Of a stretch of DNA of 64,000 bases, positions 32,090 through 64,000 are shown one piece after another. The DNA is taken from NCBI GenBank assembly GCA_039802605.1, contig JBDRWW010000002.1:96001-160000 (forward strand), in the 5' to 3' direction. This DNA is from a candidate division WOR-3 bacterium. Lineage in GTDB: Bacteria; Hydrothermota; Hydrothermia; LBFQ01. Position numbers and translations under genes: made by a program. Positions within the stretch are counted from its first letter, which is position 1, and every line of letters begins with the position of its first letter. The notes under the pieces are model-generated. The model was not told the DNA's origin. It ran no database searches and saw nothing but the letters and a program-made list of their open reading frames with translations.

Positions 32090-32102
32090 ACGGGGGTATA
32101 AT
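32088..32102 (+). promoter_or_regulatory. AAACGGGGGTATAAT promoter upstream of nuoM
   Basis: Same 15-mer as in the rplO and 26069 promoters; 8 nt before ATG. Confidence 0.6.
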
Positions 32103-32110
32103 ACCCGCTT

Positions 32111-48058: not shown

Positions 48059-48084
48059 TATTTTCTTATAAATTTATTTGTCGC

Positions 48085-48114
48085 TTGACTTTGAAAACAC
48101 TACACTCTTAGAAT
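48085..48114 (+). promoter_or_regulatory. sigma70-like promoter TTGACT-N18-TAGAAT
   Basis: -10 box 9 nt before ATG 48124. Confidence 0.55.
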
Positions 48115-48123
48115 TGCAGCATC

Positions 48124-49206
48124 ATGAAAAGGTTTATAGTTTTGTTTATCCTGCCGTTTGTGCCCCTGTTTGGAGAAGCTCCAATCGGAATGTGTGGGAA
48201 AACCCCCTTTACCCCTGTGGATGTTTCACCTATGGCAACCCCGTTTTTCCAACTTTACAGGGAAGTTGTCAACGGCGATTTCGTCGCAGGAGGTTGTGCC
48301 CTTAGTTCCGGAGGTTCTTGTTCTATAACGATAAGCGGAATTCCCGCGGGTTCATCCGTCGTTAAAGCTTATCTGTTTTGGGTCACACAGGGTTCCGTCA
48401 CATCTGGTGTTTTCAACGGAACACCCATAACGGGAACATTGGCCGGAAGCGATTGCTCAAGTTGTTGGGGCGGATATCCCACAAATGTATATTACGCGGA
48501 TGTAACGCCATATGTATCGGGCAACGGTACATACAGCCTTTCTAGTTTTGGGTCTATAACCTGCGGGGGCCCCGGGCCGGAAGGTGCGGCTCTCATCGTG
48601 GTGTATGGCAACGGTGCGGAAACCAAAAGAACTATAACCGTATATACGGGTGCTTGGGAGTGGGTCTGTTCAGGGAATTACACATGGACACATACCGGTT
48701 TTACCGCCACAAATCCCGTAACATCGGCTAAGTATTTGGTAGCATTTGGCAATGGACAAAACTTTGGAGAAGTTGGAGGAGAATATGTATATCTTAACGG
48801 AAACCTGATAACCACTGACATAGACGGTTTAACCGGTCCGGGTTCCGGTCCCTGTGGAAACGGTTCCCTTTGGGATGTATTCCAGGGAAGCGCGACCAGC
48901 TGGATACCCGGAGGGGCAACGAGTGCAACTTTTTCTTTTAATAATTCGGAGGCTGCCGATTGTTGGCATATTACTGTGAGTGTTTTATCGGTTTCCTCGG
49001 ATGATGCTTTAACATATACCTGTGCTGCGGGTTATGATGATCCGGTTCTCGTTGATGAAAGCAAAGGCGTATATTACGAAGGGGATATGACGGTTTATAG
49101 TATAGGCGGCTCGGTGATTTACAAGGGTAAAGGGTTTGTAAAATTGCCCAAGGGGGTTTATTTCATAAGGTATAAGGATGGGGTTAAGAAGGTGTTAGTC
49201 CGTTAA
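48124..49206 (+). CDS. Secreted Cys/Gly/Ser/Thr-rich protein (DUF3344-like) with T9SS-like CTD
   Basis: Signal peptide; VVKAYLFW, YYADVTPYV, ALIVVY; CTD LPKGVYFIR...KKVLVR. Confidence 0.65.
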   Translation: MKRFIVLFILPFVPLFGEAPIGMCGKTPFTPVDVSPMATPFFQLYREVVNGDFVAGGCALSSGGSCSITISGIPAGSSVVKAYLFWVTQGSVTSGVFNGTPITGTLAGSDCSSCWGGYPTNVYYADVTPYVSGNGTYSLSSFGSITCGGPGPEGAALIVVYGNGAETKRTITVYTGAWEWVCSGNYTWTHTGFTATNPVTSAKYLVAFGNGQNFGEVGGEYVYLNGNLITTDIDGLTGPGSGPCGNGSLWDVFQGSATSWIPGGATSATFSFNNSEAADCWHITVSVLSVSSDDALTYTCAAGYDDPVLVDESKGVYYEGDMTVYSIGGSVIYKGKGFVKLPKGVYFIRYKDGVKKVLVR

Positions 49207-51314
49207 ATTACAGACAAGGGGTCTATATTGAATATTCGCTTGCCCCGTAGTTTTAGGTTATTCAATGTTTGGAACAACCGACCGATTTTTCTGTAATCAT
49301 CGCCTATCAAAACCAACCTTATGCGGTATTTACCGTATAACTTTGAAATCGGAGGGGGTGAGGGGCCCCATACCTTTACATCCCCTTTATAGTTATTCAC
49401 AAATTCGCTTAAAACCTTAAAATTAAATCCGTTGTTTTCCTCGGAAGATGTTCTAACCTCAAAAAATGCCATCCTTGTAAACGGTGGGAAACCGAGCCTT
49501 TTCCTTTCATTGTATAACATTTGATAAACATCATCAAAATTCCCATCAATCAAAGCCTTAAAAACCCTATGTGTTGGATTGTATGTTTGTATTAATGTTA
49601 GACCCCCTTTCCTTATCCTTCCCGAAACCTGGGCCAAATATTGCAAGGCCCTCTCTTCCGCGCGGAAGTCGTTCCCCCTATACAGAAACTCATCGGCGTT
49701 TAAAACCCCAACAAAACCAACATTCTCAAAATCCAAACCCTTTATAACCATTTTTGTACCCACCAAAACCCTAACCTTACCCTCACCAAATTCCTTTAAA
49801 ATCTTTAAGGCTTCACCCCTTTTCCTAATAACATCCGAATCCATTCTAAAAACTTCAACCTTTAACATTTCCCTTAAATACCTTTCTACCCTTTGCGTCC
49901 CGAACCCAACACCCCTTAAATTCGTTCCCCCGCAGTACTCGCATGTTAAAGGTATATCCTGAGAAAACCCGCAGATATGACACTTTAAGTATTCCCCCTT
50001 TTGCCCTTTGTGAAGGGCTAAGACAACATCACAGTTTTCACACCTTACGGGGTTTCCGCAATCACCGCAGAAGAAATAGGGCAAATATCCCCTTCGGTTT
50101 ATGTATATTATAGCATTTTTCCCCTTTTCCAATGTGGAATTTAATTCTTCTAAAAACTTCTTGGAAAACACCCCGTTTATCAACTTTTGTTTTCTCAAAT
50201 CCACGATTTCTATTTTTGGGTTTTCGTATTCATAAATCCTCTTGGTTAAAATCAATCGCTTGTATTTCCCGAGTTTCATATTGTGAAAGCTTTCCAAAGA
50301 GGGAGTGGCACTCCCAAGAATAACGGGGATTCCCAAGAGTTTAGCCCTATAAACCCCCAAGTCTCTGGCGTTAAAAAACGGTAGCCTTTCCTCCTCCTTA
50401 AAACTCTCTTCAAATTCCTCATCAACAATGATTATCCCCAAGTCTTTAAAGGGTAAAAAAACCGCATTTCTCGTTCCCATAACAACGGTTATATTACCGT
50501 CAAGAACCCCTTTCCAAACGCTCAACCTATAACCCTCCGGCATGCCGCTATGGTATAGGGCAAACCTATTACCGAAAGCGTTTTGAAAAACCTTCGCAAG
50601 GTGATAGGATAAAAATATTTCCGGAACCAGTATTAATACACTTTTGCCGGAATTAACAACCTTTTCGGCGGATTTCAGATATACATAAGTCTTTCCCGAA
50701 CCCGTTGGTCCCCATAAGTAAAAAGGCGAAAACCCATCTCTTTCAATGGCGGAATAAATTGAATTTAAAACCCTCATCTGTTCAGGTGTGGGTGTGTTGG
50801 GTATGTTAAAGCTTCCAAATTCATAAATCTTAGGGGGTTTGAAATTGGGAAATTTGAAATCTTCAAATCGTTTAACCAAACCCATCCTTTCCCATTTTTT
50901 GAGGTAATAGGTCAAATCCCTACCGAATTTTTTCTTAATTGAGGACCTAGTCCTCGGCTCTTTAATGTAATCCCAAAGTTCCAGCATTTTGGTTTTTGGG
51001 GGTTTATCCCCCACCCTGAGGTAATATACCCTTATAGCCTTATGGAAAGCACCGGGAAGTATTAGGTTCAAAAAAAGGTTTAACGGGTTGTGATAGTATT
51101 CGGATGCAAACTCTACCAATTTTAAAACATCCTCCGGAAGCGTTATGTTTAGGTTTTCTGCCCTTTTTAAACCGTTTGTATTAATGCCTTCATCAACCGA
51201 CCATACAACGCCTATATTGGTGTTGTTCCTTACATCAACCCTTACAACATCCCCTATCCTTCCATCCCCCTTATACTGGAACAAACCCGCCTTTGTTAAT
51301 ACGTTTAGTTTCAA
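49203..51314 (-). CDS. priA: Primosomal protein N'
   Basis: GPTGSGKT, VDEE, GSATPS, four CxxC, KGLDF, Q.SGR. Confidence 0.93.
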   Translation of the reverse strand: MKLNVLTKAGLFQYKGDGRIGDVVRVDVRNNTNIGVVWSVDEGINTNGLKRAENLNITLPEDVLKLVEFASEYYHNPLNLFLNLILPGAFHKAIRVYYLRVGDKPPKTKMLELWDYIKEPRTRSSIKKKFGRDLTYYLKKWERMGLVKRFEDFKFPNFKPPKIYEFGSFNIPNTPTPEQMRVLNSIYSAIERDGFSPFYLWGPTGSGKTYVYLKSAEKVVNSGKSVLILVPEIFLSYHLAKVFQNAFGNRFALYHSGMPEGYRLSVWKGVLDGNITVVMGTRNAVFLPFKDLGIIIVDEEFEESFKEEERLPFFNARDLGVYRAKLLGIPVILGSATPSLESFHNMKLGKYKRLILTKRIYEYENPKIEIVDLRKQKLINGVFSKKFLEELNSTLEKGKNAIIYINRRGYLPYFFCGDCGNPVRCENCDVVLALHKGQKGEYLKCHICGFSQDIPLTCEYCGGTNLRGVGFGTQRVERYLREMLKVEVFRMDSDVIRKRGEALKILKEFGEGKVRVLVGTKMVIKGLDFENVGFVGVLNADEFLYRGNDFRAEERALQYLAQVSGRIRKGGLTLIQTYNPTHRVFKALIDGNFDDVYQMLYNERKRLGFPPFTRMAFFEVRTSSEENNGFNFKVLSEFVNNYKGDVKVWGPSPPPISKLYGKYRIRLVLIGDDYRKIGRLFQTLNNLKLRGKRIFNIDPLSVI

Positions 51315-53668
51315 TCCCTTTCCACCCGAACCTCCTCAAATACTTCCTTTAACACATCCCCAACGGTTTCGACAAAGACGAATTCAAGCCTGTTTTTCAC
51401 CGTTTGGGGAACATCTTCAAGGTCCTTTTTGTTCCAAGATGGCATTATAACCTTCTTAATACCAGCCCTGTCGGCCGCCAAAACCTTTTCCTTTATACCA
51501 CCAACGGGTAATATCTTCCCCCTTAATGTTATTTCCCCGGTCATCGCAATGTCCGCGGGTACGGGTATGTTTAAGGCCAAGGAGTAAAGGGCAACAAACA
51601 TGGTTATACCGGCGGATGGGCCATCCTTAGGTATTGCCCCGGAAGGTACATGTAGGTGTATAAACCCCTTATCCCAGAATTCCGGCGGAACACCCCTTTC
51701 GGCGGAATACTTTCGGGCCAATGTTAAAGCCGCTTCTGCGGATTCCCTCATAACCTCACCCAACTTACCCGTAAGTTTAAACCCCTTTTCACCCGGTACC
51801 CTTATCGCCTCAACAAAGAGGACCGAACCACCCACGGGTGTCCACGCCAATCCCGTAGCCACACCTACCTTTGCTTCCCTTTCGGCCAGTTCGGGGAAGT
51901 ATTCCGGTTTTCCTAAGAATTCTTCAACATTTTCCGGGGTTATGACAAAATCGCAGGCCTCCCCCTCCTCCGTAACCTTCAGGGCTATCCTCCTAAAAAT
52001 CCTGTTAATCTTTCTCTGCAACTCCCTAACACCCGCTTCCCTCGTGTATTCCTCTATTATCCTCGTCAAAGCCCTCTCATTAAATTCAACCCTACAATCC
52101 TTTAAACCGGTTTCTTCCTTTTGTTTGGGTATTATGAAGTTTAAGGCTATTTGGATCTTTTCCTCTAAGACATATCCGGGTATCTCTATGACTTCCATCC
52201 TATCAAGCAACGGTGCGGGAATGGTTAATGTCGTATTTGCGGTGGTTATAAAGAAAACCTTTGAGAGGTCAAAGGGGAGGTCCAAATAATGGTCTTTAAA
52301 GGAATGGTTTTGCTCCGGGTCTAAAACTTCAAGTAAAGCGGAGGCCGGATCTCCCCTCCAATCGGTGCCGAGTTTGTCTATTTCGTCGAGCATCATAACG
52401 GGATTATTACTACCCGCTTCCTTCAAGGCCATAATTATCCTTCCCGGCAAGGCGCCCACATATGTCCTCCTGTGCCCCCTTATTTCGGCCTCATCCCTAA
52501 CACCCCCAAGGCTCAACCTAACAAACTTTTTATTCAAGGCCCTCGCTATTGACCTACCCAAACTCGTCTTTCCGACACCCGGAGGACCTACAAAGCAAAG
52601 GATGGGGGCTTTACCCGTAGGGTTTAACTTTTTTATTGCTATATACTCTAAAATCCTCTCCTTAACCCTTTCAAGGTCGTAATGGTCTTCGTCCAAAACC
52701 CTCCTCGCGTTGGCCACATCCATGTTATCCTCTGTGCTTTCAAGCCATGGGAGGTCTAATATCCATTCCAAATATGTTCTTATAACATGGTATTCCGGGG
52801 ATGCGGATGGCACCCTTTGGAGCCTCCTCAACTCCGTTTCCGCAGCCTTTCTAACATAATCCGGTAGGGGCTTCTCCTTTAACCTCTTTTCAAGCTCCGC
52901 TATTTCGGACTGTTCATCGGATATTCCCAATTCCTTTTGTATTGCTTTTAGTTGCTCCCTTAGGAAGTATTCCCTCTGCGCCTTCTCCATTTCCTCCTGA
53001 ACGCTCCTTTGTATCTTCTGAGATAACTCTTGCAATTCAACCTCACGAGTGGCGTATTTTAAAACCAATTCCAAGCGCTTCTTTACATCCAATGTTTCCA
53101 AAATCTCATACCTCTCTTCCGGTTTAAGGTTCTGTAAAAGCGACGCCGAAACATCCGCCAACATAGATGGTTTGGGTAAATTTGAAAGGGCTCCAACGGC
53201 TTCCTGAGGTATCTTTTGGTAATCCGCCAACTTCCTCATGGTTTGTAGTAATGCCTCCTTTAAGGGTAGGAGTTCATCATCCGGGTAGTCTATTTCGTGT
53301 AATTCTTCAACCTCGGCCATTATGTAAGGTTCGAGTTGTACCTGTCTTAAAATCTTTATCCTCTTTACGCCGCTTAGGATTATACGGATGTTTCCATCGG
53401 GCAACCTGTTCATCCTCATAAGGATGGATGCCGTTCCTACCGGATATAAATCTTCTATACCCTGAACATCCCTTTCCGGGTCTTTTTGCATAAAGGCGCC
53501 TATGATTTTCGGCTCGGTGGGTGTGGAAAGTACGGAATTTACAAGCCTCTTAGACCTTTCAACCCCAACCAAAACTGGAACCGTTGAAAAGGGGAATATG
53601 ACCCCCCCCTTAACGGGTAAAATTGGCAATTCCCTTGGTACATCAATTTGCTCAAAAGGCACTTGCAT
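51311..53668 (-). CDS. lon: Lon protease
   Basis: GPPGVGKTS, DEAEIRGHRRTY, PKDGPSAG, GGIKEK. Confidence 0.97.
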   Translation of the reverse strand: MQVPFEQIDVPRELPILPVKGGVIFPFSTVPVLVGVERSKRLVNSVLSTPTEPKIIGAFMQKDPERDVQGIEDLYPVGTASILMRMNRLPDGNIRIILSGVKRIKILRQVQLEPYIMAEVEELHEIDYPDDELLPLKEALLQTMRKLADYQKIPQEAVGALSNLPKPSMLADVSASLLQNLKPEERYEILETLDVKKRLELVLKYATREVELQELSQKIQRSVQEEMEKAQREYFLREQLKAIQKELGISDEQSEIAELEKRLKEKPLPDYVRKAAETELRRLQRVPSASPEYHVIRTYLEWILDLPWLESTEDNMDVANARRVLDEDHYDLERVKERILEYIAIKKLNPTGKAPILCFVGPPGVGKTSLGRSIARALNKKFVRLSLGGVRDEAEIRGHRRTYVGALPGRIIMALKEAGSNNPVMMLDEIDKLGTDWRGDPASALLEVLDPEQNHSFKDHYLDLPFDLSKVFFITTANTTLTIPAPLLDRMEVIEIPGYVLEEKIQIALNFIIPKQKEETGLKDCRVEFNERALTRIIEEYTREAGVRELQRKINRIFRRIALKVTEEGEACDFVITPENVEEFLGKPEYFPELAEREAKVGVATGLAWTPVGGSVLFVEAIRVPGEKGFKLTGKLGEVMRESAEAALTLARKYSAERGVPPEFWDKGFIHLHVPSGAIPKDGPSAGITMFVALYSLALNIPVPADIAMTGEITLRGKILPVGGIKEKVLAADRAGIKKVIMPSWNKKDLEDVPQTVKNRLEFVFVETVGDVLKEVFEEVRVERD

Positions 53669-53669
53669 T

Positions 53670-54053
53670 TTACTTTACCTCTATTTGTATTGTCCTCTTT
53701 TTCTTTGGTATCCTAATTTCCAAAAGCCCGTTTTCGTATTTACTCGTTATCCCATCCACATCTATATCCGCGTTTAAATATAGCCTCCTTTCAAAGGGTC
53801 CGAAATATATTTCCGCTATGTGGTAAATCCTGTTTCCCGGACCTTCCGGTTCCGGTCTTTTGCCGGAAATTATCAATGTCCCGTTATCGTATAAAACTTT
53901 TAAAGAGTTTTTATCCGCCCCTCCAACGGCCATATATACCACAAATTCGTCATCCGTTTCGTAGGCGCTTATGGGAGGTTTATAAACCCTATACCCAACC
54001 CTTGATATGTTTCCAAAAAACTCTTCAAACTCTTCAAAGGGGTCCTTAAACAT
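53670..54053 (-). CDS. Small heat-shock protein Hsp20
   Basis: YETDDE, L.ISGKR, E..FG.FER, YENGLLEIRIPK. Confidence 0.9.
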   Translation of the reverse strand: MFKDPFEEFEEFFGNISRVGYRVYKPPISAYETDDEFVVYMAVGGADKNSLKVLYDNGTLIISGKRPEPEGPGNRIYHIAEIYFGPFERRLYLNADIDVDGITSKYENGLLEIRIPKKKRTIQIEVK

Positions 54054-54244
54054 TACTTTAACCCCAAACCCGCCAAAACCTTTATTGCGTCCCCTTTCTT
54101 TAAGTATGCGGCTTTCCTTAGTCTCCTCTTTCTCGCCTTACTCTTTTTAGGCCCCAAATTGTGCCTCCTACCGCTCCTCTGGTGTTTCACCTTGCCATTT
54201 GCGGTAATTTTAAACCTCTTTGCTATGGACTTCTTGGTTTTCAT
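54053..54244 (-). CDS. rpmI: 50S ribosomal protein L35
   Basis: KTKKSIAKRFKITANGK, RH, K..RRL. Confidence 0.93.
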   Translation of the reverse strand: MKTKKSIAKRFKITANGKVKHQRSGRRHNLGPKKSKARKRRLRKAAYLKKGDAIKVLAGLGLK

Positions 54245-54252
54245 AAACGGTA

Positions 54253-54284
54253 ATTCTAAGGCCGGAAAAAAACCGTTATATAAT
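54253..54284. promoter_or_regulatory. Divergent -10 boxes for rpmI (-) and Argonaute (+)
   Basis: TAGAAT on - (54253-54258) 8 nt from rpmI ATG; TATAAT on + (54279-54284) 9 nt from ATG 54294. Confidence 0.6.
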
Positions 54285-54293
54285 ACCCCGTTT

Positions 54294-56327
54294 ATGCCGA
54301 GAATTAACGCTTTTAAGATTGATATTTCAAAAATCCCGAGTATAAATTATTACAGGCTTAACGAGGGGTTTCAGAATGATGCGGAAATGTTTTCATTTTC
54401 GTGGAGAAACGGTGGAATTTTTTGGGAGGATTATTTTTTAACACCCTTAGAGTATAGTGAAATACCCGATAAAGACCGTTTAAAACAAGTTAAAAGTTTT
54501 CCCTTTCTTTCCAAAGATTTGAACACGGAAACCCGCATAGATTTACTGCACCGTTATACCTCCTTTAAACTCAAAAAATTGGGCGTTTTGAAAAAGATAA
54601 AAAACAATATAAAACAAAGCCTTTTAGAAAGGGGGATAAAGGAGGTTATAGGTAGGTTTGTCTGGGATGTTGAGGTCCTTGACGATGTAATATTTAACGG
54701 CGAATTTTACTATGTCCTGAATTTTAGAATTAGAATATTCTTTAACCAAAACCTATGGGATTATGTGGGGAGAAATCCGGAAAGGTTAAACGGTTTAAAA
54801 GGCAAGGGTTTTAGGTTTAAATTGAACCCAAAGTATATATACTACATTGAAAAAGTTTATAAGGATGAGGCGAAAAGCAAGGAAATATTAGATTACCTAC
54901 ACTTTAAGTATCCGAAATATATGCAAAAAGTTAATCTTGACGAAAATCAGCCGATAATATTGGGTTCCCGGGGTTATCGCAAATACCCGTATTTACCCCA
55001 GCTGTGTTATTTATCCGCTAAAATGGATGAAATTGATGGATGGGAGATAAGGGAATTTAAGAATCTATGGATTTTAACGAATCAACATAGGTTTGAGATT
55101 ATAAGATCTGCATTTGAAAATAGCACGAATAAACGACCCGAGATTTTAGAGGTTAATAGCAGGATATACCCAAAGCCGGAAATTTTGGTAAATCAGAAGG
55201 ATGGGAAGATATTGGGGGAAGGTTTTAGACCTTACTATGTTCCCAAAATCCTACCAAAGGAATTGGATACATACATACTTATTGATAAAAATCTGGGCTA
55301 TAACTCCGTAAAAGATTTCGTTGAGGATTTCTTAAAAGCCTTTAATTCAATTTCCCAAATCCCAAGGTTAAGGGTTGTAAAAAGGATAGAATTCTCCCCG
55401 GAAAAAATAATAGATGCGGATAAAGAAACGGAAGTACGCGATCCCCTGGCGTTTTCATTAATCATATTCCGCATTAAATACACATCAAACAACGGGGAAA
55501 AACCCTATGAAAGTATTAAAAGGTTGCTATTCAACAAAAACATAATTTCGCAGACCTTGATATACTCCAACATAAAAGAAAACAACATGGAAATAATCCT
55601 TAAAAACCTCATCGTTCAGAGTATGTCAAAGTTGGGTATAAGGGCTTTTACATTAAAAAGCGAAATCCCCTACGATTATACTATTGGGGTTGATGTTGGG
55701 AGGACTTGGAGGGGAAATTTGGGAGTGGGTGGTTGTTCGGTTGTGATAACGGGCGACGGTGTGGTCAAAAGGATAGTTCCGATTCCTCAACCCACAACCG
55801 GAGATACTTTAAAAATCTCGTGGTTTTTGGGAAGGATACATGCAAAGGATAGGCTTTCGGGTAAAAGGGTTTTGGTTTTGAGGGATGGGAATTTGAGGAA
55901 GGAAGAATTGGATGATTTGTATCATTTTGTTAAGGATTACGGGGTTGAAGTTTTAACATATATGAATGTTGTAAAAAGGCATAGGGTTTTTATGGTTTCG
56001 GAGGAAAACGGGGAAGGGGTTGTATTTGGCGATGGTTCAGGGCTTTTATTACCGCACGGAAGGGACTATAAGGAGGTTGGTCCAAAGCCCATAAGGATAA
56101 AGGACAAGTATGTATTTGATAAAGGGGGATTTCAAAAGGTTGAAGTACTCTATCAGGATTTAAAGGTTTTGAACGATTTGACATATTTGGTATTTTCAAT
56201 GCTTCCCTTAAAAAAGACCAAACTGCCCGCACCCATAGGCCTTGCGGATAAGTTCGTTAAGGCGTTGGGTAAAAACTGGTCGATAAGGGAGGAACTTTTG
56301 GAAAACGGGTTGCTTTATTTCCTGTAA
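54294..56327 (+). CDS. ago: Long prokaryotic Argonaute (PAZ-MID-PIWI), MjAgo-like, 677 aa
   Basis: PAZ (DENQPII..YPYLPQLC), MID Y..IK/SQ/KLG, PIWI YDYTIGVDVG, VLRDG, PAPIGLADKFVK, C-terminal LYFL; ORF-track start 54159 overlaps rpmI and is unlikely. Confidence 0.9.
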   Translation: MPRINAFKIDISKIPSINYYRLNEGFQNDAEMFSFSWRNGGIFWEDYFLTPLEYSEIPDKDRLKQVKSFPFLSKDLNTETRIDLLHRYTSFKLKKLGVLKKIKNNIKQSLLERGIKEVIGRFVWDVEVLDDVIFNGEFYYVLNFRIRIFFNQNLWDYVGRNPERLNGLKGKGFRFKLNPKYIYYIEKVYKDEAKSKEILDYLHFKYPKYMQKVNLDENQPIILGSRGYRKYPYLPQLCYLSAKMDEIDGWEIREFKNLWILTNQHRFEIIRSAFENSTNKRPEILEVNSRIYPKPEILVNQKDGKILGEGFRPYYVPKILPKELDTYILIDKNLGYNSVKDFVEDFLKAFNSISQIPRLRVVKRIEFSPEKIIDADKETEVRDPLAFSLIIFRIKYTSNNGEKPYESIKRLLFNKNIISQTLIYSNIKENNMEIILKNLIVQSMSKLGIRAFTLKSEIPYDYTIGVDVGRTWRGNLGVGGCSVVITGDGVVKRIVPIPQPTTGDTLKISWFLGRIHAKDRLSGKRVLVLRDGNLRKEELDDLYHFVKDYGVEVLTYMNVVKRHRVFMVSEENGEGVVFGDGSGLLLPHGRDYKEVGPKPIRIKDKYVFDKGGFQKVEVLYQDLKVLNDLTYLVFSMLPLKKTKLPAPIGLADKFVKALGKNWSIREELLENGLLYFL

Positions 56328-56388
56328 TTTATGTAGTGAAAAAATATTTACACTACAAAATTTGAATCAACCTTATAATACCCGTACT

Positions 56389-58074
56389 ATGGAACCGAGG
56401 TTTTTGAAGGCTTATGAAATGCTGTTCGCAAATTTTGGGGAGAGCGAATTTACATATGAGGATGCGGAAAGCGTGCTCGGAAAGGATTTCGCCAATATTA
56501 GAGAAGTTATATCCCAACTAAAACGGGAAAAATTAATAAAGTATTTGGGGAGATACGAAAACGATAACAGAATAAAGAGGTTTAAACTGGTACCCTTAGC
56601 CAAGGTGGTAAATTCCAGAGGGGAACTTATAAGCATACTTAAACAATCCGCCGATCTTATAAGGACAAGGGTGGATTATAGGGTTTTGTTAATCCTCCTA
56701 TTCTACAAGTCCATAAGCGACAAGTGGTATAAAACCGTTGAGTATTATAAAAGGCAGGGATATAACGAGAATACCGCCAAGGATCTGGCCGATGCGGATG
56801 TTTTACGCCTACGGGATAAAAACGGGGACGAAATAACATGGCATAGTGCGGGAAATAATTCCCAAAAATTGGTTGAAAACCTTTCAAAGTTGGAAGACCT
56901 AAACGGTGATGAACTGAAAGGGTTTAAGAGTTTGCTCCAAATAACTCAAATCGCCGATCTGGTGAATAACTCCGGTAATATCTCCATATTTTCGCAAATA
57001 ATACAACTTTTCGGCAATATTGACTTTTCCAATTATCCTTACGATGTTCTTGGAGATGGATACGAGTGGATACTCGGATATTTTGCCCCTCAGAAAGCCA
57101 AAGAGGGGGAAGTTTATACACCCAAAGAGGTCAGTAGGCTGTTGGCCGAAATCCTTGATCCAGAAACCAATTACGATATACTTGACCCCGCAAGTGGTTC
57201 CGGTTCTTTATTAATAGAGATGTATAAAAAGATGGCGGAAAAAGGCGAACCCAATGGTATGCTTTACGGTCAAGAGGTAAATAGCGTTATGGCGATTATT
57301 TCAAGGTTAAACTTTAAACTCCATAATATTACCAACTTCAAGATATATGAAGGCGATTCCTTATTATCTCCCCAGTTTGAACATGCGGATATAGTGGTTG
57401 CAAATCCGCCTTGGAATCAGGACGGATATAACGAGAAAAATCTCGGAAATATAAGGGATATATACTATTATGGCTTTACAAATAAAAAATCCGCCGATTG
57501 GGCTTGGATACAGTTGATAACTTACTACGCCAAGAAAAGGGCGGGTGTTATCATAGATACCGGGGCGCTTACAAGGGGTGGAAGGGAAGGAAAGATAAGA
57601 AGGAAATTTATAGAATCCGGGATAATAGACGCTGTAATCCTTTTACCTGAAAAGTTGTTTTATAACACCCAAGCACCCGCATGCATAATAATTTTTAACA
57701 AGGAGAAACCTAAGGACAAAAACGATAAAATTCTGTTCATAAATGCGAGTTATCTATACAAATCCCACCCAGATGTTAAAAAATTAAACATATTGGGTGA
57801 GGATAACATAGAGGAAATAGTGGATGCTTATAACGGTTATTATGAGGGAAGGGAACTTCCGGAATTTGCAAGGGTTGTATCAATTGATGAAATCGCAAAT
57901 AACAACTATAACCTTAATGTTTCCCTATATGTTCATTTGGGTGAAGAAAATGAAAGGGTTGATATTTTTGAAGAGTTTATGAACCTTATGAGTTTAAACG
58001 AAGAGTACGAGGCACTGTTTAATAGGATAAGCGGGTATATGGAGGAAATAAAGAAATTGGAGGGTGAGATATGA
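56389..58074 (+). CDS. hsdM: Type I R-M methyltransferase HsdM with N-terminal wHTH-like extension
   Basis: GDGYE, GEVYTP, DPASGSG, YGQE, NPPW, LFYNT; TATAAT 56374-56379 9 nt before ATG. Confidence 0.92.
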   Translation: MEPRFLKAYEMLFANFGESEFTYEDAESVLGKDFANIREVISQLKREKLIKYLGRYENDNRIKRFKLVPLAKVVNSRGELISILKQSADLIRTRVDYRVLLILLFYKSISDKWYKTVEYYKRQGYNENTAKDLADADVLRLRDKNGDEITWHSAGNNSQKLVENLSKLEDLNGDELKGFKSLLQITQIADLVNNSGNISIFSQIIQLFGNIDFSNYPYDVLGDGYEWILGYFAPQKAKEGEVYTPKEVSRLLAEILDPETNYDILDPASGSGSLLIEMYKKMAEKGEPNGMLYGQEVNSVMAIISRLNFKLHNITNFKIYEGDSLLSPQFEHADIVVANPPWNQDGYNEKNLGNIRDIYYYGFTNKKSADWAWIQLITYYAKKRAGVIIDTGALTRGGREGKIRRKFIESGIIDAVILLPEKLFYNTQAPACIIIFNKEKPKDKNDKILFINASYLYKSHPDVKKLNILGEDNIEEIVDAYNGYYEGRELPEFARVVSIDEIANNNYNLNVSLYVHLGEENERVDIFEEFMNLMSLNEEYEALFNRISGYMEEIKKLEGEI

Positions 58075-58334
58075 GGGTATCCAAAATTAAGGAAAACAAT
58101 TACTCCGAGGCTTATGTAGGAAGAACGAGCAATGTTAATAGGAGAATAAACCAAATCCGACGAAGTATTGGAAAGTTTAAAGATGTGTATATAGTTTATG
58201 CAACCAAAAATTTAGAACATGCCAAAAGTATGGAAGGCGAGATGAGATCGTTATCCATTCTAAACCAATCAGATGGTTCCGATGGTTCAAAAGGCCAACC
58301 ACCTTATTATGTATATGTCGCTTTTAGGAGGTAA
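58071..58334 (+). CDS. Small GIY-YIG-like protein (apparently circularly permuted)
   Basis: YVGRTSNVNRR, AKSME, LN, C-terminal YYVYV; SD GGAGGG and ATGA overlap with hsdM. Confidence 0.55.
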   Translation: MRVSKIKENNYSEAYVGRTSNVNRRINQIRRSIGKFKDVYIVYATKNLEHAKSMEGEMRSLSILNQSDGSDGSKGQPPYYVYVAFRR

Positions 58335-58337
58335 AGT

Positions 58338-59543
58338 ATGAATGGGATAAGGTTTTATAAGGAATTGGATTTTAAGGATACGGAAGTTGGGAGGATACCG
58401 AAGGATTGGGAGGTTAGGAGGTTGGGGGAGGTGGCAGAAATAAAAAATGGAAAATCAGATGTAAAGGATGCGGTTCCGGGTGGGTTATATCCCTTCTTTG
58501 ATCGTTCAACCGTAGTAAAAAAGAGTAACAGATACCTTTTTGATACGGAAGCCGTAATAATACCGGGTGAAGGGTATAAATTCATACCAAAGTATTATAA
58601 CGGTAAATTTGATTTACACCAAAGGGCTTATGCTTTATTTAACTTTGATATATCAACTTATGCCCCATATGTCTTTTACGCTTTACAATGGGATAAAATT
58701 CAAAACATCCTAATACGCCGAGCGGTTGGATTTACAGCATTATCGCTAAGAAAACCTATTATTCAAAACTTCCCCATCCCCCTCCCCCCTCTCCCAGAAC
58801 AGAAAGCCATCGCTAAGGTTTTGAGCGATTTTGATAAGCTTATTGAGGTTATAGACAGGAAAATAAAGGCTTTGGAAAGGATAAAGAAGGGTATGATGGA
58901 TATTTACTTTACGAGGGGAGTGTTTGAACACAAAGAATTTATTTACAGCAAGGAACTGGGGCATGAGATACCGAAGGATTGGGAGGTTAAAAAATTAACA
59001 GATTTGGCCGATCTGGAAAGGGGTAAAGAGGTGGGTTCTAAAAATTACAATAGGAAAGGGGAGGGAATAAGGTTTATAAGGGTTGTTGATCTTTCGGGTG
59101 CCCGTGATGATGTAGTTTATACGACTTCAAAAGATGTAAAAATTTGTAAAAAAGACGACATTTTAATAACCCTTGATGGGAGTGTAGGGATTGTAAGAAT
59201 GGGATTTGAAGGGGCTTATTCTTCGGGTATAAGGAAGGTGGTAATAAAGGATAAGGAGAAAGTTTTAAAGGATTTCCTATTCTTCGCTTTACAGGGCGAT
59301 TTGGTTCAATATGTTATAAAATCCTATTCTCGTGGAACTACAATTCAACATGCCGGCGAATCCGTTAAACATATTCCCATCCCCCTCCCCCCTCTCCCCG
59401 AACAGAAAGCCATAGCCGACAGGTTAAAATCTATTGATGATTTGATTGAAAACCGCAAAAGAATGAGGGAAAGTTTGGAGAGGATGAAAAAGTGGTTTAT
59501 GGGGAAATTGCTTATGGGTGAAATAAGGGTTAAGGAGGTGTAA
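58338..59543 (+). CDS. hsdS: Type I R-M specificity subunit HsdS (two TRDs)
   Basis: IPKDWEV x2, PIPLPPLPEQKAIA x2, K..M..LL.G.IRV. Confidence 0.95.
   Translation: MNGIRFYKELDFKDTEVGRIPKDWEVRRLGEVAEIKNGKSDVKDAVPGGLYPFFDRSTVVKKSNRYLFDTEAVIIPGEGYKFIPKYYNGKFDLHQRAYALFNFDISTYAPYVFYALQWDKIQNILIRRAVGFTALSLRKPIIQNFPIPLPPLPEQKAIAKVLSDFDKLIEVIDRKIKALERIKKGMMDIYFTRGVFEHKEFIYSKELGHEIPKDWEVKKLTDLADLERGKEVGSKNYNRKGEGIRFIRVVDLSGARDDVVYTTSKDVKICKKDDILITLDGSVGIVRMGFEGAYSSGIRKVVIKDKEKVLKDFLFFALQGDLVQYVIKSYSRGTTIQHAGESVKHIPIPLPPLPEQKAIADRLKSIDDLIENRKRMRESLERMKKWFMGKLLMGEIRVKEV
58394..58989 (+). repeat. 23-bp direct repeat GATACCGAAGGATTGGGAGGTTA at 58394-58416 and 58967-58989, preceding each TRD
   Basis: Identical copies read by eye. 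Confidence 0.85.
58773..59413 (+). repeat. 38-bp C-rich direct repeat (1 mismatch) at 58773-58810 and 59376-59413, following each TRD
   Basis: CCCATCCCCCTCCCCCCTCTCCC(A/C)GAACAGAAAGCCAT. Confidence 0.85.
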
Positions 59544-59545
59544 AG

Positions 59546-62500
59546 GTGTATAAGGAGAGGTATGATTACAAACATATAAAGGAAGAGTTGAAAAAACTGG
59601 GTTGGCAGGAGAATGTTGGGGAAAAGGAGGGCTTGTTTATAGATAATGATTTAAGGCAGATATGCAAAATCAACGGGGTTTATGAGCATTGCGATAAACT
59701 TTTAGATGAGATAAAAAAGGCGTTTGAAAATAGTGATGATAATGGGTTTTTGCTTATGCTTCAAATGGGCTTTAATTCCAAGGTTTTAAACAACAGGGTT
59801 ATAAAACTCATAGATTTTGATGATTGGAGGGAAAACATTTTTAGGTTTTCACAAGAGCATAAGTTTGAGGGCTATCCGAGAAATATAATTCCGGATTTTG
59901 CGCTTTTTATAAACGGGATACCGGTGGTAATAATAGAGGTTAAGAAAACCAGAGGAGAGGATAAAGTTGAAGAGGCCGAGGATCAAATTGAAAGGTATGA
60001 GATGTATTCGCCAAAACTGTTTAAAAGCGTTTTCTTGGGTATAGCATATTCAAAAACAAAGAGATATGCCGCCACATACCCAAACCATACCCAGAAACCT
60101 TTTAATAAACCCTTTCAGGAGTGGAAGGATGAGATAAGCAAAAATTCTAATATATTTGAGATTTTAGAACCCACCAGACTTTTAAGAATCCTCAGGTATT
60201 ATACAATACCTTTAAAAAACGGCACAAGGGTGGTTCCCAGATATATGCAATTTTACGCGGTTGAAAAGGTGGTGAATGAAAGGATTATCCCATATCTAAA
60301 CGGTAATAATTATAAAAATAAAGGCTTGATATGGCACTGGCAGGGAAGCGGAAAGAGTTGGGAAATCGTATTTTTAAGCCGTATATTTTTACAAGATTAC
60401 AGGGAAAAATATACGGATGTTTTTATCGTGGTTGATAGGTTGGAACTGGAAAGCCAAATACTTGATGAATACTTCAATAACATTTATGGCGGAATTATCC
60501 CATACGAGAGAATTGATAATAGGTATAGTTTGAACAGAATTTTACAAAGGTTAAAGGAAAAAGAAGAGGGTAAAAGTATAACGGAATCCAAGGTTTGGAT
60601 TGTCATGCTTCACAAATTTGGAGGAGAAGGAATCGGGAATATTACAGAAATTCGGCGGAAGCACATATTAATACTTAGGGATGAGGTTCATCGCTCCGAA
60701 TACGGCATACTTGCGGATAACCTACACGGCATTTTCCCAAATGCTATAAAGGTAGGTTTCACCGGAACTCCAAACACCAAAAACGATAAAAACACATTTG
60801 AAGCATACTCTTATCCAAATGAAGGGGAATTCTATCTCCACAAATATTTTGTGGGGGATTCAATTGGAGATGGATATACATTACCAATAGTTTGGATGTC
60901 GGTGGAAAACGAGAATATAAAATTACCGGAAGAAAAAACAAGGGAAATCGTTAGGAAAATAATAATCGGGGATATACCCGAAGAATCTTATGAAGAACCC
61001 GCAAACATAACCTTAAAGGATTACCTAACCTCACCCAAAAGAATACAAAAAGCGGCTGATTACATATTACAAAGGATAGAAGAAGATACGGAAAAATTTA
61101 AATTCAAAGCCTTTGTTGTGGCTCAAAACAGGTATGCGGCCGTTATGTTTTGTAGAATGTTAAGGGAAAAACTCGGACATGAAAAGGTAGGAGTGGTATT
61201 TACCGGTTCCGGAAGCGTTAAAGTTGCCGATTGGCAAAGGGAAATAGATGAGTTTATAAATCAAGAGGAAAAAACCAACGGAAAAAAGTGGGATGAGATA
61301 ATAAGGGATAGAAAAAGGAGTTTTAAGGATGAAAACAGTCCGTTAAAGGTTTTAGTGGTTTCGGATATGCTATTACAGGGATACGATGCGCCAATATTAA
61401 AGGTTATGTATATTCATAAGGTTATGAGTGGGCACACACTATTACAGGCCACCGCCCGGGTGAATAGACCGTATAAAGGCAAAAATAAATCCTTTGGTTT
61501 GGTGGTAGATTTAACCGGAATACTTTTAAGTGAATACATTGATACCCTCAGGAATTATGAACTTTACAAAGAGGACATAAGCGAGGACATACTTAAAAAC
61601 CTGTTTATTAGTTCTGACGAAAAGTTTAACGAATTTCTCGGTAGTTTTGAAAACTTAAAAAAGGAGTTAAACGATATATTAGCGCCCATCGGCTATAATT
61701 ACGAAAAACTAAAAAGTGAATGGAATAATTTGGATGAGAAAGAGGTTAAGCGATTGGTATTTTGGATTTTTTCAAATTATTGGGAAATTTTTGCAAACAT
61801 TAAGGAAACTTTAAGGACTTACAAATCCATAGGCGCATATCCCAAAAAGAGGGAATACGCAAGGGATGTAGAATTTTTGGAAGAACTGTTTAATGAATTA
61901 AGAGGCTTACTTAACTCCAAGAAGAGAAGGAGAATAAAAAACTTAAAGTTAGAAATTCTTGAAATACTAGAAACCGAACTCAAACCGGGGGGATTGGCCT
62001 ATATTGATGAAAGCATAGACAAAATCCTAACGCCCAAGTTCCCCGAAAAAATCATAATAGCCAATTTCTTATTAGTGGAAATGGAAAAATATCAAAGGGA
62101 AAAAGTGAAAACTCCGCTTCACTACGAAGTGATTAGAAACCTCAAATCTTTAATAAAAAGGATCCAAACCCTTCAAGAGGAAAACGCCAGACTCATCCTT
62201 GAAATCATTCTATCAAAAAGCGAAAAAAGATTAATAAGTCAATTAAAACAAACCCAAGATAAGAATTTGAGGGGGATTTTAATGCGGATAAGAAACATAT
62301 GGTTTTATGGAAAACTTATTCAAAAGGGAAATATATCCGAAGCGGAAGCCCTTGCATATACTATAGTTAGGAAATTTATAGGGAGAAAAGCCAAAAAAGT
62401 AATGAAAGATTTAATTTTAATATGCGAAAAAATCCATAAAAGGCGGGATAAAGCGGAAAAGATAACCCCAGAAATAAAAAAGCAATTGGAAAGGCTTTTA

Positions 62501-62611
62501 ATAATATCGGGATACAAACAAAATAGAAACGAGATTTTACAAAACATTGAGCAATATATAACTGATTTTTATGGATGGAAAAGCTTTAAGAAAACTCTTG
62601 GAGGAAGTTAA
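59546..62611 (+). CDS. hsdR: Type I R-M restriction subunit HsdR
   Basis: PD...INGIP..IEVK nuclease, QIERY, WHWQGSGKS, DEVH, FTGTP, QATARVNR. Confidence 0.93.
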   Translation: MYKERYDYKHIKEELKKLGWQENVGEKEGLFIDNDLRQICKINGVYEHCDKLLDEIKKAFENSDDNGFLLMLQMGFNSKVLNNRVIKLIDFDDWRENIFRFSQEHKFEGYPRNIIPDFALFINGIPVVIIEVKKTRGEDKVEEAEDQIERYEMYSPKLFKSVFLGIAYSKTKRYAATYPNHTQKPFNKPFQEWKDEISKNSNIFEILEPTRLLRILRYYTIPLKNGTRVVPRYMQFYAVEKVVNERIIPYLNGNNYKNKGLIWHWQGSGKSWEIVFLSRIFLQDYREKYTDVFIVVDRLELESQILDEYFNNIYGGIIPYERIDNRYSLNRILQRLKEKEEGKSITESKVWIVMLHKFGGEGIGNITEIRRKHILILRDEVHRSEYGILADNLHGIFPNAIKVGFTGTPNTKNDKNTFEAYSYPNEGEFYLHKYFVGDSIGDGYTLPIVWMSVENENIKLPEEKTREIVRKIIIGDIPEESYEEPANITLKDYLTSPKRIQKAADYILQRIEEDTEKFKFKAFVVAQNRYAAVMFCRMLREKLGHEKVGVVFTGSGSVKVADWQREIDEFINQEEKTNGKKWDEIIRDRKRSFKDENSPLKVLVVSDMLLQGYDAPILKVMYIHKVMSGHTLLQATARVNRPYKGKNKSFGLVVDLTGILLSEYIDTLRNYELYKEDISEDILKNLFISSDEKFNEFLGSFENLKKELNDILAPIGYNYEKLKSEWNNLDEKEVKRLVFWIFSNYWEIFANIKETLRTYKSIGAYPKKREYARDVEFLEELFNELRGLLNSKKRRRIKNLKLEILEILETELKPGGLAYIDESIDKILTPKFPEKIIIANFLLVEMEKYQREKVKTPLHYEVIRNLKSLIKRIQTLQEENARLILEIILSKSEKRLISQLKQTQDKNLRGILMRIRNIWFYGKLIQKGNISEAEALAYTIVRKFIGRKAKKVMKDLILICEKIHKRRDKAEKITPEIKKQLERLLIISGYKQNRNEILQNIEQYITDFYGWKSFKKTLGGS

Positions 62612-62894
62612 GGAAAAACTGGGATTAAAGGATAAGGTTTATTTGAGGGTAAAACCTTTAAAAAGATCAATAGCAATTATATCGCTTAAAACCAAGAGAA
62701 TAACGATAAACAAAAACATATTGAACATATTCACAAAGGACGAAATAAAATACATCTTGGCGCACGAACTATTACACCTCAAATACGGGAAAACCCACAC
62801 CTTGGAGATGGATCGGGAACTTGAAAACCTCTTTGGAAAAGATGTAAAACCGTCAATATTAAAGAAAATCAAATCGTTAATCCAATCCTCTTAG
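62571..62894 (+). CDS. YgjP/DUF45-like zinc metallopeptidase
   Basis: I.IN..L......YILAHELLHL...H; typical position after hsdR. Confidence 0.8.
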   Translation: MDGKALRKLLEEVKEKLGLKDKVYLRVKPLKRSIAIISLKTKRITINKNILNIFTKDEIKYILAHELLHLKYGKTHTLEMDRELENLFGKDVKPSILKKIKSLIQSS

Positions 62895-64000
62895 AAAAAT
62901 CCGAATATATCAAACCCTGAGGATCATACTTAGCCCTTATTTCCATCCACCTCTTTGCGTTTGGATACATATCAAAAAACCTTTCCTTGGTTAAAACCGC
63001 ATCCTTTGTTAAATAAACCCTTCCCCCAAACTTTATTACCTTATCCGTTAAAGCCTTTAAAAATTCAAACAAACCACCCCTTATCGGGAAATCAAGGGCA
63101 AGGGTCCAACCCTCCATACCAAAGGCCAAATAACCATCCTGCTTACCCATCTTCTTTAAAACCGCCAAAAAGGAATTCCCTCCAAAGCCCACAATATCGG
63201 AGAATATTTCCTTTAAACCCGCATCGTCGGGGACGACAAACTGAAATTGGACAAAACCCCTCTTCCCATAAGCCCTATTCCAATTTAAAACGGAATCCAA
63301 GGGATAAAAAAACCTTTCGTAATCAACAACCCCCCAACAATCCGGATGGGTTAAGTAATAAAACTGGTTAAAAGCCTTTACCGTCCAATCGCTTAAAACA
63401 AAGTCCGGAAGATAAAAGGGTACATTTATCTTAGTCTTACCCAAAAACATTAAAGGATTGCTTTTTAAATCTTTGGGTAAATCCGAGAGTTTTGCATGCT
63501 CGCCAAACATAACAACACCCCTACCAAAGTTTTTACCCCTTGAAAGGCAGTCTATCCAAGCAACGGAATATGTGTATTTTGGATCGTTTTCCTCAAAGGT
63601 TGCCAACATATGGTCTAAATCCTTAACCCTAACACTCCTATAAAGGATATAAGAGGTTTCAACCCTTCTGAGTTTTATTTTTGCATCCAATATAAAACCC
63701 GTTAAACCCATACCCCCAAGGGTAATGTAAAACAATTCGGCATTTTCGTCCCTAGTGCAATAAACCCTTTCCCCACTCGGAATGATTAGATTAAAACCCA
63801 AAACATAGTTTGATATTGAACCCTCCTTGTGGTGGTTTTTCCCATGTACATCGCTCGCAATCGCGCCACCTATGCTAACAAACTTTGTGCCGGGTGTTAT
63901 GTAGGGAAACCAACCCCTTGGTAAAAAGTATCTCAGAATATCCTCAAATGTAGCACCGGACTCAACCCATAGTATTCCGTTTTCCTCATCAAAATCCAAA
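62869..64000 (-). CDS. FAD-linked oxidoreductase, DprE1-like (5' end outside window)
   Basis: PGTKFVSIGGAIASDVHGKNHH, GGMGLTG, YSVAWID, WNRAYG..GF.Q.Q, GGRVYLTKD. Confidence 0.88.
   Translation of the reverse strand, partial: LDFDEENGILWVESGATFEDILRYFLPRGWFPYITPGTKFVSIGGAIASDVHGKNHHKEGSISNYVLGFNLIIPSGERVYCTRDENAELFYITLGGMGLTGFILDAKIKLRRVETSYILYRSVRVKDLDHMLATFEENDPKYTYSVAWIDCLSRGKNFGRGVVMFGEHAKLSDLPKDLKSNPLMFLGKTKINVPFYLPDFVLSDWTVKAFNQFYYLTHPDCWGVVDYERFFYPLDSVLNWNRAYGKRGFVQFQFVVPDDAGLKEIFSDIVGFGGNSFLAVLKKMGKQDGYLAFGMEGWTLALDFPIRGGLFEFLKALTDKVIKFGGRVYLTKDAVLTKERFFDMYPNAKRWMEIRAKYDPQGLIYSDFSKRIGLTI

Follow-up and report, generated by a model that had tools for sequence, protein, structure and literature searches.

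An Argonaute gene and a type I restriction–modification operon form one presence/absence island in a candidate division WOR-3 bacterium

A long prokaryotic Argonaute (pAgo) and a type I restriction–modification (R-M) system lie side by side in an 8.6-kb island of an uncultured hot-spring bacterium of candidate division WOR-3, and the island is present or absent as a whole. The window analysed was a 64,000-nt stretch of GenBank assembly GCA_039802605.1 (contig JBDRWW010000002.1, positions 96,001–160,000 of the forward strand); all coordinates below are those of the window. The reading we favour, and hold with some reserve to be probable, is that the island comprises two stacked, co-transferred immune systems that act as independent layers. 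The pairing of Argonaute and R-M is real and fairly ordinary. Co-location of pAgo and R-M genes as such is already in print, and passages in PMC6299218 and PMC5995195 describe pAgo neighbourhoods as enriched in defence genes, including HsdS. New here are the presence or absence of the whole block, close Ago and HsdM homologues on 4,298-nt contigs, and a host promoter motif before both ago and hsdM. The locus is a compact natural test case in which an Argonaute is tied to a break-making, methylation-aware enzyme, and it also offers coexisting island-plus and island-minus cells within the same springs, together with a glutamate finger naturally changed from Glu to Asp.

As originally predicted, six co-directional genes stand between housekeeping genes. 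The plus-strand ORFs ago, hsdM, an 87-aa ORF, hsdS, hsdR and a 107-aa HExxH ORF were found between rpmI and an FAD-oxidase gene; the flanking housekeeping genes are all on the minus strand, namely rpmI, hsp20, lon and priA on the left and an FAD_binding_4/ALO oxidase gene on the right. The borders of the island are defined by natural variation. In contigs of three runs (X1, X9 and X11, from studies P1, P3 and P4), position 54264 is joined straight to position 62868, with 18 other letters between. This joint, recurring in contigs from three studies, indicates that the whole 8,603-nt block (54265–62867, no strand assigned) is one presence/absence unit, as in a mobile or variable genomic island. 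No joint separating ago from the R-M genes occurred among the joints listed. Filled and empty forms of the site coexist in X1, X9 and X11, and an X1 contig of 8,670 nt spans 54235–62904 with 0 differences, representing the filled form. The X1 depths (10.9 for the island contig, about 15 for the flanks and 6.6 for the empty joint) are suggestive of a mixed population, contig depth not being equal to share of cells. Joints within hsdM, hsdS and hsdR in X9 (for example, 57107 to 60322 and 58434 to 59382) were considered as island variants and set aside; given their short sides of 24–38 letters, far greater depths and a likeness of 80%, they were treated as conserved hsd segments of other organisms.

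A domain profile search of the island found no integrase or transposase, and no sequence was common to both sides of the 54264/62868 joint (‘both’ = 0). The GC content of the island is 36.8%, compared to 41.3 ± 1.8% for the genome, placing it in the lowest 1.4% of the genome's 8.6-kb windows. The slot between the stop codon of the FAD-oxidase gene and rpmI is variable. In two sister genomes (G001 and G004) ArgRS stands beside rpmI, while in a third (G003) nuoC is found there and the FAD gene is on another contig. In G002, the closest species genome, contigs end exactly at both island borders, and the left one closes with ATGCC, preceded by the promoter motif that also stands before ago.

That promoter motif is TATAATACCC, judged from the genome sequence to be the host's own leaderless promoter motif. 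One plus-strand copy (54279–54288) lies 9 nt before the ago ATG and a second (56374–56383, plus strand) lies 9 nt before the hsdM ATG. Genome-wide there are 91 copies compared to 5.5 expected, and 46 of the 91 have the start codon of an ORF of ≥60 aa within 5–12 nt downstream; a general promoter-like scan gave 29 sites with 29.2 expected. With the ago stop ending at 56327 and the hsdM ATG at 56389, the 61-nt spacing given previously is confirmed, and a terminator scan called no terminator-like site in this 61-nt spacer. The prediction that hsdM has its own promoter was confirmed, and is strengthened by the TATAATACCC copy 9 nt before the ATG and by the genome-wide enrichment.

The ago gene (54294–56327, plus strand) encodes a 677-aa long pAgo of the MjAgo clade, identified by Piwi, PAZ and pAgo models and by structure matches. 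The Piwi domain PF02171 was matched with E = 1.6e-15, archaeal PAZ with 6.6e-5 and PADLOC pAgo models with values down to 1.4e-47. The nearest solved structure by sequence is MjAgo (5g5t/5g5s; HMMER, E = 4.5e-69), aligned end-to-end over MjAgo residues 9–713. The AF2 model (pLDDT 86.9) gave a TMq of 0.78 to 5g5t_A and of 0.80–0.81 to TtdAgo and PfAgo. From the alignment, the PAZ and Piwi matches and the AF2 model, the full N-PAZ-MID-PIWI architecture of long-A pAgos is present. The MID motif Y405-K409-Q420-K446 is also kept, its columns being conserved in 21, 20, 21 and 21, respectively, of 21 aligned sequences, and we take these columns to be the 5'-phosphate-binding motif. That assignment is consistent with a passage in PMC6299218, and the motif suggests that the island Ago would load 5'-phosphorylated small guides.

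The catalytic positions read D467-D504-D531-D652, which differs from the canonical DEDX tetrad. The glutamate finger (E541 in MjAgo, a number counted off the alignment of the island Ago with MjAgo) is Asp in the island Ago and in its closest homologue, P0002, and Glu in the other 19 of the 21 aligned clade members. If the Asp finger still functions, the island Ago would be expected to cleave complementary DNA. The PIWI region had been thought to match MjAgo nearly motif for motif. This holds for the C-terminal motifs, which are very alike (one is near-identical), and for the placing of MjAgo (PDB 5G5S, 5G5T), nearest by sequence and ranked nearest by fold; the two proteins also share the full-length architecture, the Y-K-Q-K MID motif and three of the four catalytic positions. 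It does not hold throughout, however, as identity is 28–32%, GDTL replaces GE[TRK], and GLADK replaces HYADK. A further difference from MjAgo is that the host of the island Ago is a bacterium.

The R-M genes have the domains expected of a type I system. HsdM (561 aa; 56389–58074, plus strand) has an N6-adenine methylase domain (N6_Mtase, 1.4e-95) with the catalytic motifs DPASGSGS and NPPW. HsdS (58338–59543, plus strand) has two target-recognition halves, matched by Methylase_S in two stretches (1.4e-50) and by PADLOC Specificity_I models, and two direct repeats, D1 and D2, lie within its gene. HsdR (1021 aa; 59546–62611, plus strand) combines an N-terminal nuclease domain with an SF2 ATPase translocase and a domain 3 (HSDR_N 1.7e-22; SWI2_SNF2 9.6e-41; ResIII; T1R_D3; PADLOC REase_I 2.4e-63). 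From this gene content, the system would be expected to methylate its own sites and to cleave incoming DNA that is unmethylated. The two small ORFs, counted as accessories of the system, are less clear. The 87-aa ORF (58071–58334, plus strand) starts 4 nt inside the hsdM end; it had been called nuclease-like, for which there is a weak, partial T5orf172 match just over its cut-off (20.4 bits compared to 20; E = 7.8e-4) and a GIY-YIG match under its own cut-off. The 107-aa HExxH metallopeptidase-like ORF (62571–62894, plus strand; HELLH) starts inside the 3' end of hsdR and runs 27 nt past the island border. It had been called YgjP-like; weak M56, SprT, M48 and YgjP-like matches were obtained, YgjP scoring 23.1 bits, under the cut-off of 26. 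YgjP-like genes occupy the equivalent place after hsdR in two other loci, G011 (58.6 bits) and L020 (204.5 bits).

The island Ago was found in five of 272 genomes of the phylum and not in the other 267. Across 40 related genomes, no HsdR exceeds 36% identity to that of the island. The Ago clade includes a Methanocaldococcus fervens protein and contigs with archaeal markers, and HsdM relatives at 44–48% identity, among the matches listed, come from Thermocladium, Nitrososphaeria, Aquifex, Methanocaldococcus indicus and Bathyarchaeota. Horizontal acquisition from, or sharing with, thermophilic archaea, as first proposed, is thus upheld in general terms by the few carrier genomes, the divergent HsdR, the low GC content and the archaeal relatives, which point to a thermophile gene pool that includes archaea but single out neither a donor nor the way in which the genes moved. 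A full HMMER scan returned 63 Ago relatives and a word-index search six, so that the family is small, though larger than the latter search implied; a 44-residue match to Trabulsiella from a single-protein scan of the genome collection was spurious and was discarded.

Ago has a single close homologue, P0002 (75.4% identity), and HsdM likewise has one among the 120 HsdM matches listed, P0069 (82.0% identity); each is known from one contig, of 4,298 nt in both cases. Six other Ago representatives are on contigs of 4736, 5194, 18141, 7642, 47978 and 3152 nt, none of which equals the longest contig of any of the 120 HsdM matches listed. Because P0002 and P0069 are both on single 4,298-nt contigs, ENA is among the sources of both, and the two genes would nearly fill 4,298 nt, they appear to share a contig, and the ago–hsdM adjacency is very probably kept in this only close relative.

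A survey of the neighbourhoods of MjAgo-clade homologues, suggested with the original prediction, gave a divided answer: two further Ago lineages, G011 and L020, adjoin type I R-M operons, but most relatives have other neighbours. In G011 the gene order is hsdM, ago, a 128-aa ORF, hsdS, DarT-Macro, hsdR and ygjP, and the ago ATG, preceded by AGGAGG, overlaps the end of hsdM by 11 nt. In L020, ago and ygjP-hsdR converge. Both G011 and L020 have a disrupted ago frame. Housekeeping neighbours were found in the UbiA/COX15 locus lineage (G014, G015 and L024, and by layout L026, L028, L029 and L031), in L015/L041, in L037 and in L014. Resolvase or transposase genes neighbour Ago in L032–L036, L023 and L038, BrxL is beside Ago in L021, and a DUF1156/DUF499/SNF2 system is found in L019 and L040. 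The neighbours of the sister Agos L020 and L019 are unlike. The R-M systems of the three R-M-linked Agos are also unlike one another: the HsdR proteins of the island and of G011 share 34% identity, the genes are ordered differently, and HsdM_N was detected in the G011 HsdM and is absent from the matches of the island HsdM. In the tree, the G011 Ago is on a long branch at an unresolved fork. Since the R-M partners and gene orders are unlike, we regard these as cases of independent docking of Ago on R-M; the tree alone is not the basis for this.

The gene prrC in EcoprrI is the classic defence gene docked in a type I R-M operon. The island resembles such loci in that another immune gene lies linked to hsdM, hsdS and hsdR and is co-inherited with them, and G011 is the truly embedded form. 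In the island, unlike the prrC type, ago is outside the operon, upstream of hsdM and with its own promoter motif separate from that of hsdM. A further difference is that the island Ago is a long pAgo, possibly self-sufficient, rather than one of the short or inactive pAgos that work through a partner effector.

Under the explanation that we prefer, the 8.6-kb segment would be an accessory defence island of two complete DNA-targeting systems, each of a kind known to work alone and each probably transcribed from its own host-type leaderless promoter. The block is likely to have moved by recombination between the conserved flanks, and the two systems would be gained and lost together because both lie in the one block that moves in this way. 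The two layers of immunity would then act independently, with foreign DNA as their sole common target. Arguing for independence are the separate TATAATACCC promoters, the non-conserved neighbours within the clade and the unlike partner R-M systems. Against plain stacking, the linkage of ago and hsdM is tighter than stacking in islands predicts, as seen in P0002/P0069; the G002 borders, the R-M-adjoining Agos of G011 and L020, and the failure to find RecC, PDDEXK_1 or histone families in the host genome also count against it.

This tight linkage bears on the coupling put forward in the original prediction, in which HsdR translocates on and breaks unmethylated invader DNA, the ends serve as entry points for making small DNA guides, and methylation gives Ago an indirect self/non-self filter. 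We consider such coupling unlikely, but it best survives among the alternatives. How catalytic long Argonautes pick out foreign DNA and obtain their guides is an open question, and neither of the published answers, RecBCD for CbAgo and histones for MjAgo, was found in the host genome. RecC, PDDEXK_1 (the RecB/AddAB-type nuclease) and archaeal histone families were searched for in this 90%-complete genome and none was detected, so that both a guide-making helper of the CbAgo type and self-protection of the MjAgo type may be missing. Parts of bioRxiv 10.1101/2020.03.01.971358 report that CbAgo draws its guides preferentially from DNA on either side of engineered double-strand breaks (I-SceI or a palindrome), with RecBCD shaping the guides. 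A passage in the review PMC5995195 states that histones shield M. jannaschii DNA from chopping by MjAgo, and another that MjAgo cleavage is unaffected by methylation. Coupling would fit the ago–hsdM adjacency in the only close relative, the gain or loss of the block as a whole, with tight linkage in this lineage, and the docking of same-clade Agos on type I R-M at least two more times, once with translational coupling (G011). Against this, the ago and hsdM promoters are separate, R-M neighbours are missing from most lineages of the clade and sister Agos differ in their neighbours, the partner R-M systems are unlike, and the ago frame is broken in both of the other R-M-linked cases; co-location of defence genes is, moreover, expected even without a functional link.

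CbAgo is the precedent for breaks feeding guides, and like the island Ago it is of the long-A type with a 5'-phosphate guide pocket. The island Ago is, however, distant from it (15% identity to 6qzk), RecC and PDDEXK_1 went undetected in its host genome, and the published CbAgo model includes no R-M enzyme, ‘restriction’ occurring 0 times in bioRxiv 10.1101/2020.03.01.971358. A more specific form of the coupling, which we regard as rather doubtful, is that the type I enzyme supplies the breaks that feed guides to an MjAgo-type Argonaute while the Glu-to-Asp finger may damp guide-free ‘chopping’, with methylation again as the self/non-self filter. Such a scheme would explain both the inheritance of the 8.6 kb as one unit and the adjacency kept by the one close relative. 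Coupling, if true, would be a parallel to the known stimulation of CRISPR adaptation by restriction cuts; if it is false, the locus adds one more case of stacked defence systems in a hot spot.

The finger substitution could alternatively mean that the island Ago is catalytically weakened or dead and, once loaded with a guide, senses or binds while HsdR or the GIY-YIG-like ORF does the cutting, as in partner-effector pAgos. Asp in place of Glu in the island Ago and P0002 fits this idea, as do the long branch that the pair shares (1.37 changes per column in the tree) and the altered HYADK position, which reads GLADK in the island Ago or YLADR. Operon nucleases are, according to a passage in PMC6299218, somewhat commoner with substituted-tetrad long-A pAgos (53% compared to 45%). 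Yet Asp is a conservative change that is still acidic, the three other acidic positions are intact, domain and PADLOC searches found no SIR2, TIR, DUF4365, HNH or membrane-protein effector in the island, and the 87-aa ORF is a partial, weak GIY-YIG-like match, making a weakened Ago improbable in our judgement.

A housekeeping role for Ago, such as finishing replication as reported for TtAgo, with the R-M adjacency incidental, would suit the host-type promoter and the chromosome decatenation role that a published abstract mentions for some long pAgos, but is most improbable for a gene that is dispensable in nature (the empty site occurs in the same samples), was not found in 267 of the 272 genomes of the phylum and sits in a low-GC block.

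ORF, Pfam and PADLOC analysis recovered six co-directional plus-strand genes, including the 61-nt gap between the ago stop and the hsdM ATG, as in the original prediction. Pfam and PADLOC scores were strong for ago (54294-56327), hsdM (from its ATG, 56389-58074), hsdS (58338-59543) and hsdR (59546-62611), and these four labels stand; the other two rest on weak matches. The 87-aa ORF (58071-58334), which overlaps the hsdM stop and had been called nuclease-like, matched part of T5orf172 (20.4 bits) and, below cut-off, GIY-YIG. The 107-aa ORF (62571-62894), proposed to be a YgjP-like peptidase, carries HELLH and weakly matches the M56, SprT, M48 and YgjP-like families. The minus-strand genes rpmI, hsp20, lon and priA flank the island on the left, and an FAD-linked oxidase gene flanks it on the right.

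Contigs of four metagenome runs were compared with positions 48000-64000. In X1, X9 and X11, runs from three studies, an empty form was present in which 54264 is joined to 62868, skipping 8,603 nt, with 18 other letters between. The filled form was also present in these runs; in X1 a single 8,670-nt contig spans 54235-62904 with 0 differences, and in X9 a contig crosses the ago-hsdM junction (55953-56702). The flanks of the contigs bridging the joint are strain-like, with 0 differences over 639 letters in X11 and 2 over 733 in X9. The borders lie 20 nt upstream of the rpmI start and 1 base past the FAD gene stop codon. The defence island is genuine and intact, comprises two systems and moves as a single unit; its presence or absence as a whole block at the population level merits specialist attention. 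Because a family search found no integrase or transposase inside the island and no sequence is shared at the 54264/62868 joint, we infer that the block is most likely exchanged through recombination in its flanks. In the closest species (G002; Lon 96% and FAD protein 93% identical), contigs end exactly at both borders (L057, the end of contig C26, and L043, the start of C10). The left contig end has a different 17 nt followed by the TATAATACCC motif and ATGCC, which hints that the slot is filled there by a related, unassembled cassette.

The TATAATACCC motif occurs 91 times in the host genome (5.5 expected from base composition) and four times in the window (0.47 expected), at 20663-20672 on the minus strand and at 32097-32106, 54279-54288 and 56374-56383 on the plus strand, each time with the ATG of a long ORF 8-9 nt downstream. 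This distribution suggests a genome-wide promoter-like motif, and since about half of the copies (46 of 91) have an ORF of 60 aa or more starting within 5-12 nt downstream, leaderless mRNAs may be common in this organism. As the motif stands exactly 9 nt before the ATG of both ago and hsdM, the two appear to be transcribed as separate leaderless units in the host's style, in agreement with the earlier claim that hsdM has its own -10 box. Read-through from ago into hsdM could still occur, because a terminator scan called no terminator-like site in the spacer. Four copies of the motif at contig ends are preceded by a −35 of the TTGACA type and could belong to rRNA or repeat promoters.

The best-supported reading is independent layered defence with co-transfer, which we regard as somewhat probable. 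Break-fed loading of Ago with guides is a reasonable hypothesis to which we give a rather low probability. In an excerpt of a study of CbAgo (bioRxiv 10.1101/2020.03.01.971358), guides originate preferentially around double-strand breaks with RecBCD involved; excerpts of a review (PMC5995195) describe MjAgo cleavage as unaffected by methylation and M. jannaschii DNA as protected by histones. RecC (PF04257), PDDEXK_1 (PF12705) and archaeal histone (PF00808) were not found in the 90%-complete host genome, while control genomes were positive, and this apparent absence of the partners that normally make guides and protect the host's own DNA is also worth specialist attention. HsdS-type proteins and methyltransferases occur in pAgo operons, and some archaeal pAgos adjoin entire R-M systems, according to parts of two articles (PMC6299218; PMC5995195); a literature search by titles and abstract openings found no publication on functional Ago/R-M coupling.

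Signs of a conserved link between Ago and R-M are present in some relatives. The closest homologues of the window Ago (P0002; 75.4% identity, 678 aa, starting MPR as the window protein does) and of its HsdM (P0069; 82.0% identity, 564 aa) both have ENA among their sources. Each is known from one contig of the same size, 4,298 nt, into which the two genes and a spacer would fit (about 3.8 kb), so they are very probably neighbours. The next best among the matches listed are an Ago at 35% and an HsdM at 52% identity. Also in favour of a link, G011, a genome of the same family and another genus, has an Ago relative in two pieces (30-36% identical) inside a type I operon ordered hsdM, ago, 128-aa ORF, hsdS, DarT-Macro, hsdR and ygjP-like, the ago ATG overlapping the hsdM end behind AGGAGG; and at metagenome locus L020 ago is convergent with ygjP-hsdR-AAA_15-GmrSD, downstream of McrBC. 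However, most neighbours are of other kinds. Among 29 metagenome loci, 13 had one flank of roughly 3 kb or more and 16 were too short to tell; type I R-M genes lay beside Ago in one of the 13 (L020), a DUF1156/DUF499/SNF2 R-M-like system in two (L019, L040), and housekeeping or mobile-element genes in the other 10 (L026, L028, L029 and L031 being judged by ORF layout identical to the Pfam-scanned L024, G014 and G015). The L020 and L019 Agos are close sisters in the tree with unlike neighbours, the R-M partners are dissimilar (HsdR 34% identical), and both G011 and L020 have a disrupted ago reading frame close to an A6 run, for which assembly error, decay or slippage may be responsible.

Several of these loci have further features. 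The frame change in L011 (contig C145 of G011; ~2500-2520) and L020 (~10820-10860) splits Ago into N/PAZ and MID/PIWI parts at a similar protein position. Between hsdS and hsdR, L011 encodes a 410-aa fusion of DarT, an ssDNA ADP-ribosyltransferase toxin, with a Macro domain (5564-6796), giving three defence modules in one operon: type I R-M, Ago relative and DarT-Macro. In L019 (1-5932 and 8633-18355) and L040 (1-7947) the Ago relatives adjoin a DUF1156 methylase/DUF499/SNF2-NOV_C helicase system, and the L019 Ago directly follows a HerA-Mre11-Rad50-NurA end-resection operon. In the L032-L036 sub-clade (e.g. L036, 4255-6897) a 171-aa ORF without a family comes after Ago in every case, and resolvase, HEPN, Toprim or IS605 OrfB genes flank it, a setting that points to carriage by a small mobile element.

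The likeness of the Ago to MjAgo was upheld in overall fold and less so in detail. Its best solved relatives are the M. jannaschii structures 5g5t/5g5s (E 4.5e-69, aligned end to end), followed by 8jsi and PfAgo and, distantly, TtAgo. For an AlphaFold2 model (21 aligned sequences, pLDDT 86.9, pTM 0.84), the top fold match by E-value was 5g5t_A (3.4e-53, TMq 0.78), at 28% identity, with TtdAgo and PfAgo next. The family is small, with 63 matches at E ≤ 1e-3 and 27 at E ≤ 1e-30 among 1.84 billion representative proteins, one being a Piwi-domain protein of Methanocaldococcus fervens (P0012). A fast maximum-likelihood tree of 56 rows, with SH-aLRT as its only support measure, placed the window Ago and P0002 together on a long branch (1.37), sister to another family member, P0003 (support 96). 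In the 21-member alignment Y405, K409, Q420 and K446 are conserved and the acidic D467, D531 and D652 are retained; GLADK replaces HYADK, and where MjAgo has its glutamate finger, the window Ago and P0002 carry Asp, against Glu in the remaining 19. Because the catalytic tetrad is defined as DEDX, with X = D, H or K, in a part of PMC6299218, the window Ago departs from the canonical form. The Asp finger, a further point for specialists, is still acidic, and the protein is a long pAgo that may be catalytic. A weakened Ago acting as a sensor is a minor alternative that we consider quite improbable.

As to origin, Ago was detected (E ≤ 1e-10) in five of 272 species genomes of the phylum, all within two families, at 33-38% identity to the window copy, and the window HsdR is at most 36% identical to any relative in 40 related genomes. 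Island GC is 36.8%, against 41.3 ± 1.8% for the genome's 8.6-kb windows (lowest 1.4%). Among the matches listed, the HsdM relatives that bear an organism name and share 44-48% identity belong to thermophilic archaea and Aquificales. Ago-clade contigs carry archaeal markers (HerA-Mre11-Rad50-NurA in L019, Cdc6 in L039) or bacterial ones (MlaC and BamD-like in L015, TonB/ExbD in L037), and the runs containing the stretch are labelled 'hot springs metagenome'. The predicted sharing with thermophilic archaea would fit a gene pool common to hot-spring archaea and bacteria, given this rarity, GC and set of relatives; the donor and direction of transfer do not follow from it. In the same-genus genome G003, a 38-residue match to the extreme Ago C-terminus (L013, contig C20, 422-535; 47% identity, E 1.3e-5) falls within a 51-codon open frame that has unrelated genes on both sides, and may be a vestige of an Ago since lost. 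In G006 a contig starts with the coding sequence for the last 150 residues of an Ago relative, 38% identical (L012, contig C69, 1-453), directly upstream of argS, a gene that adjoins rpmI in two same-genus genomes.
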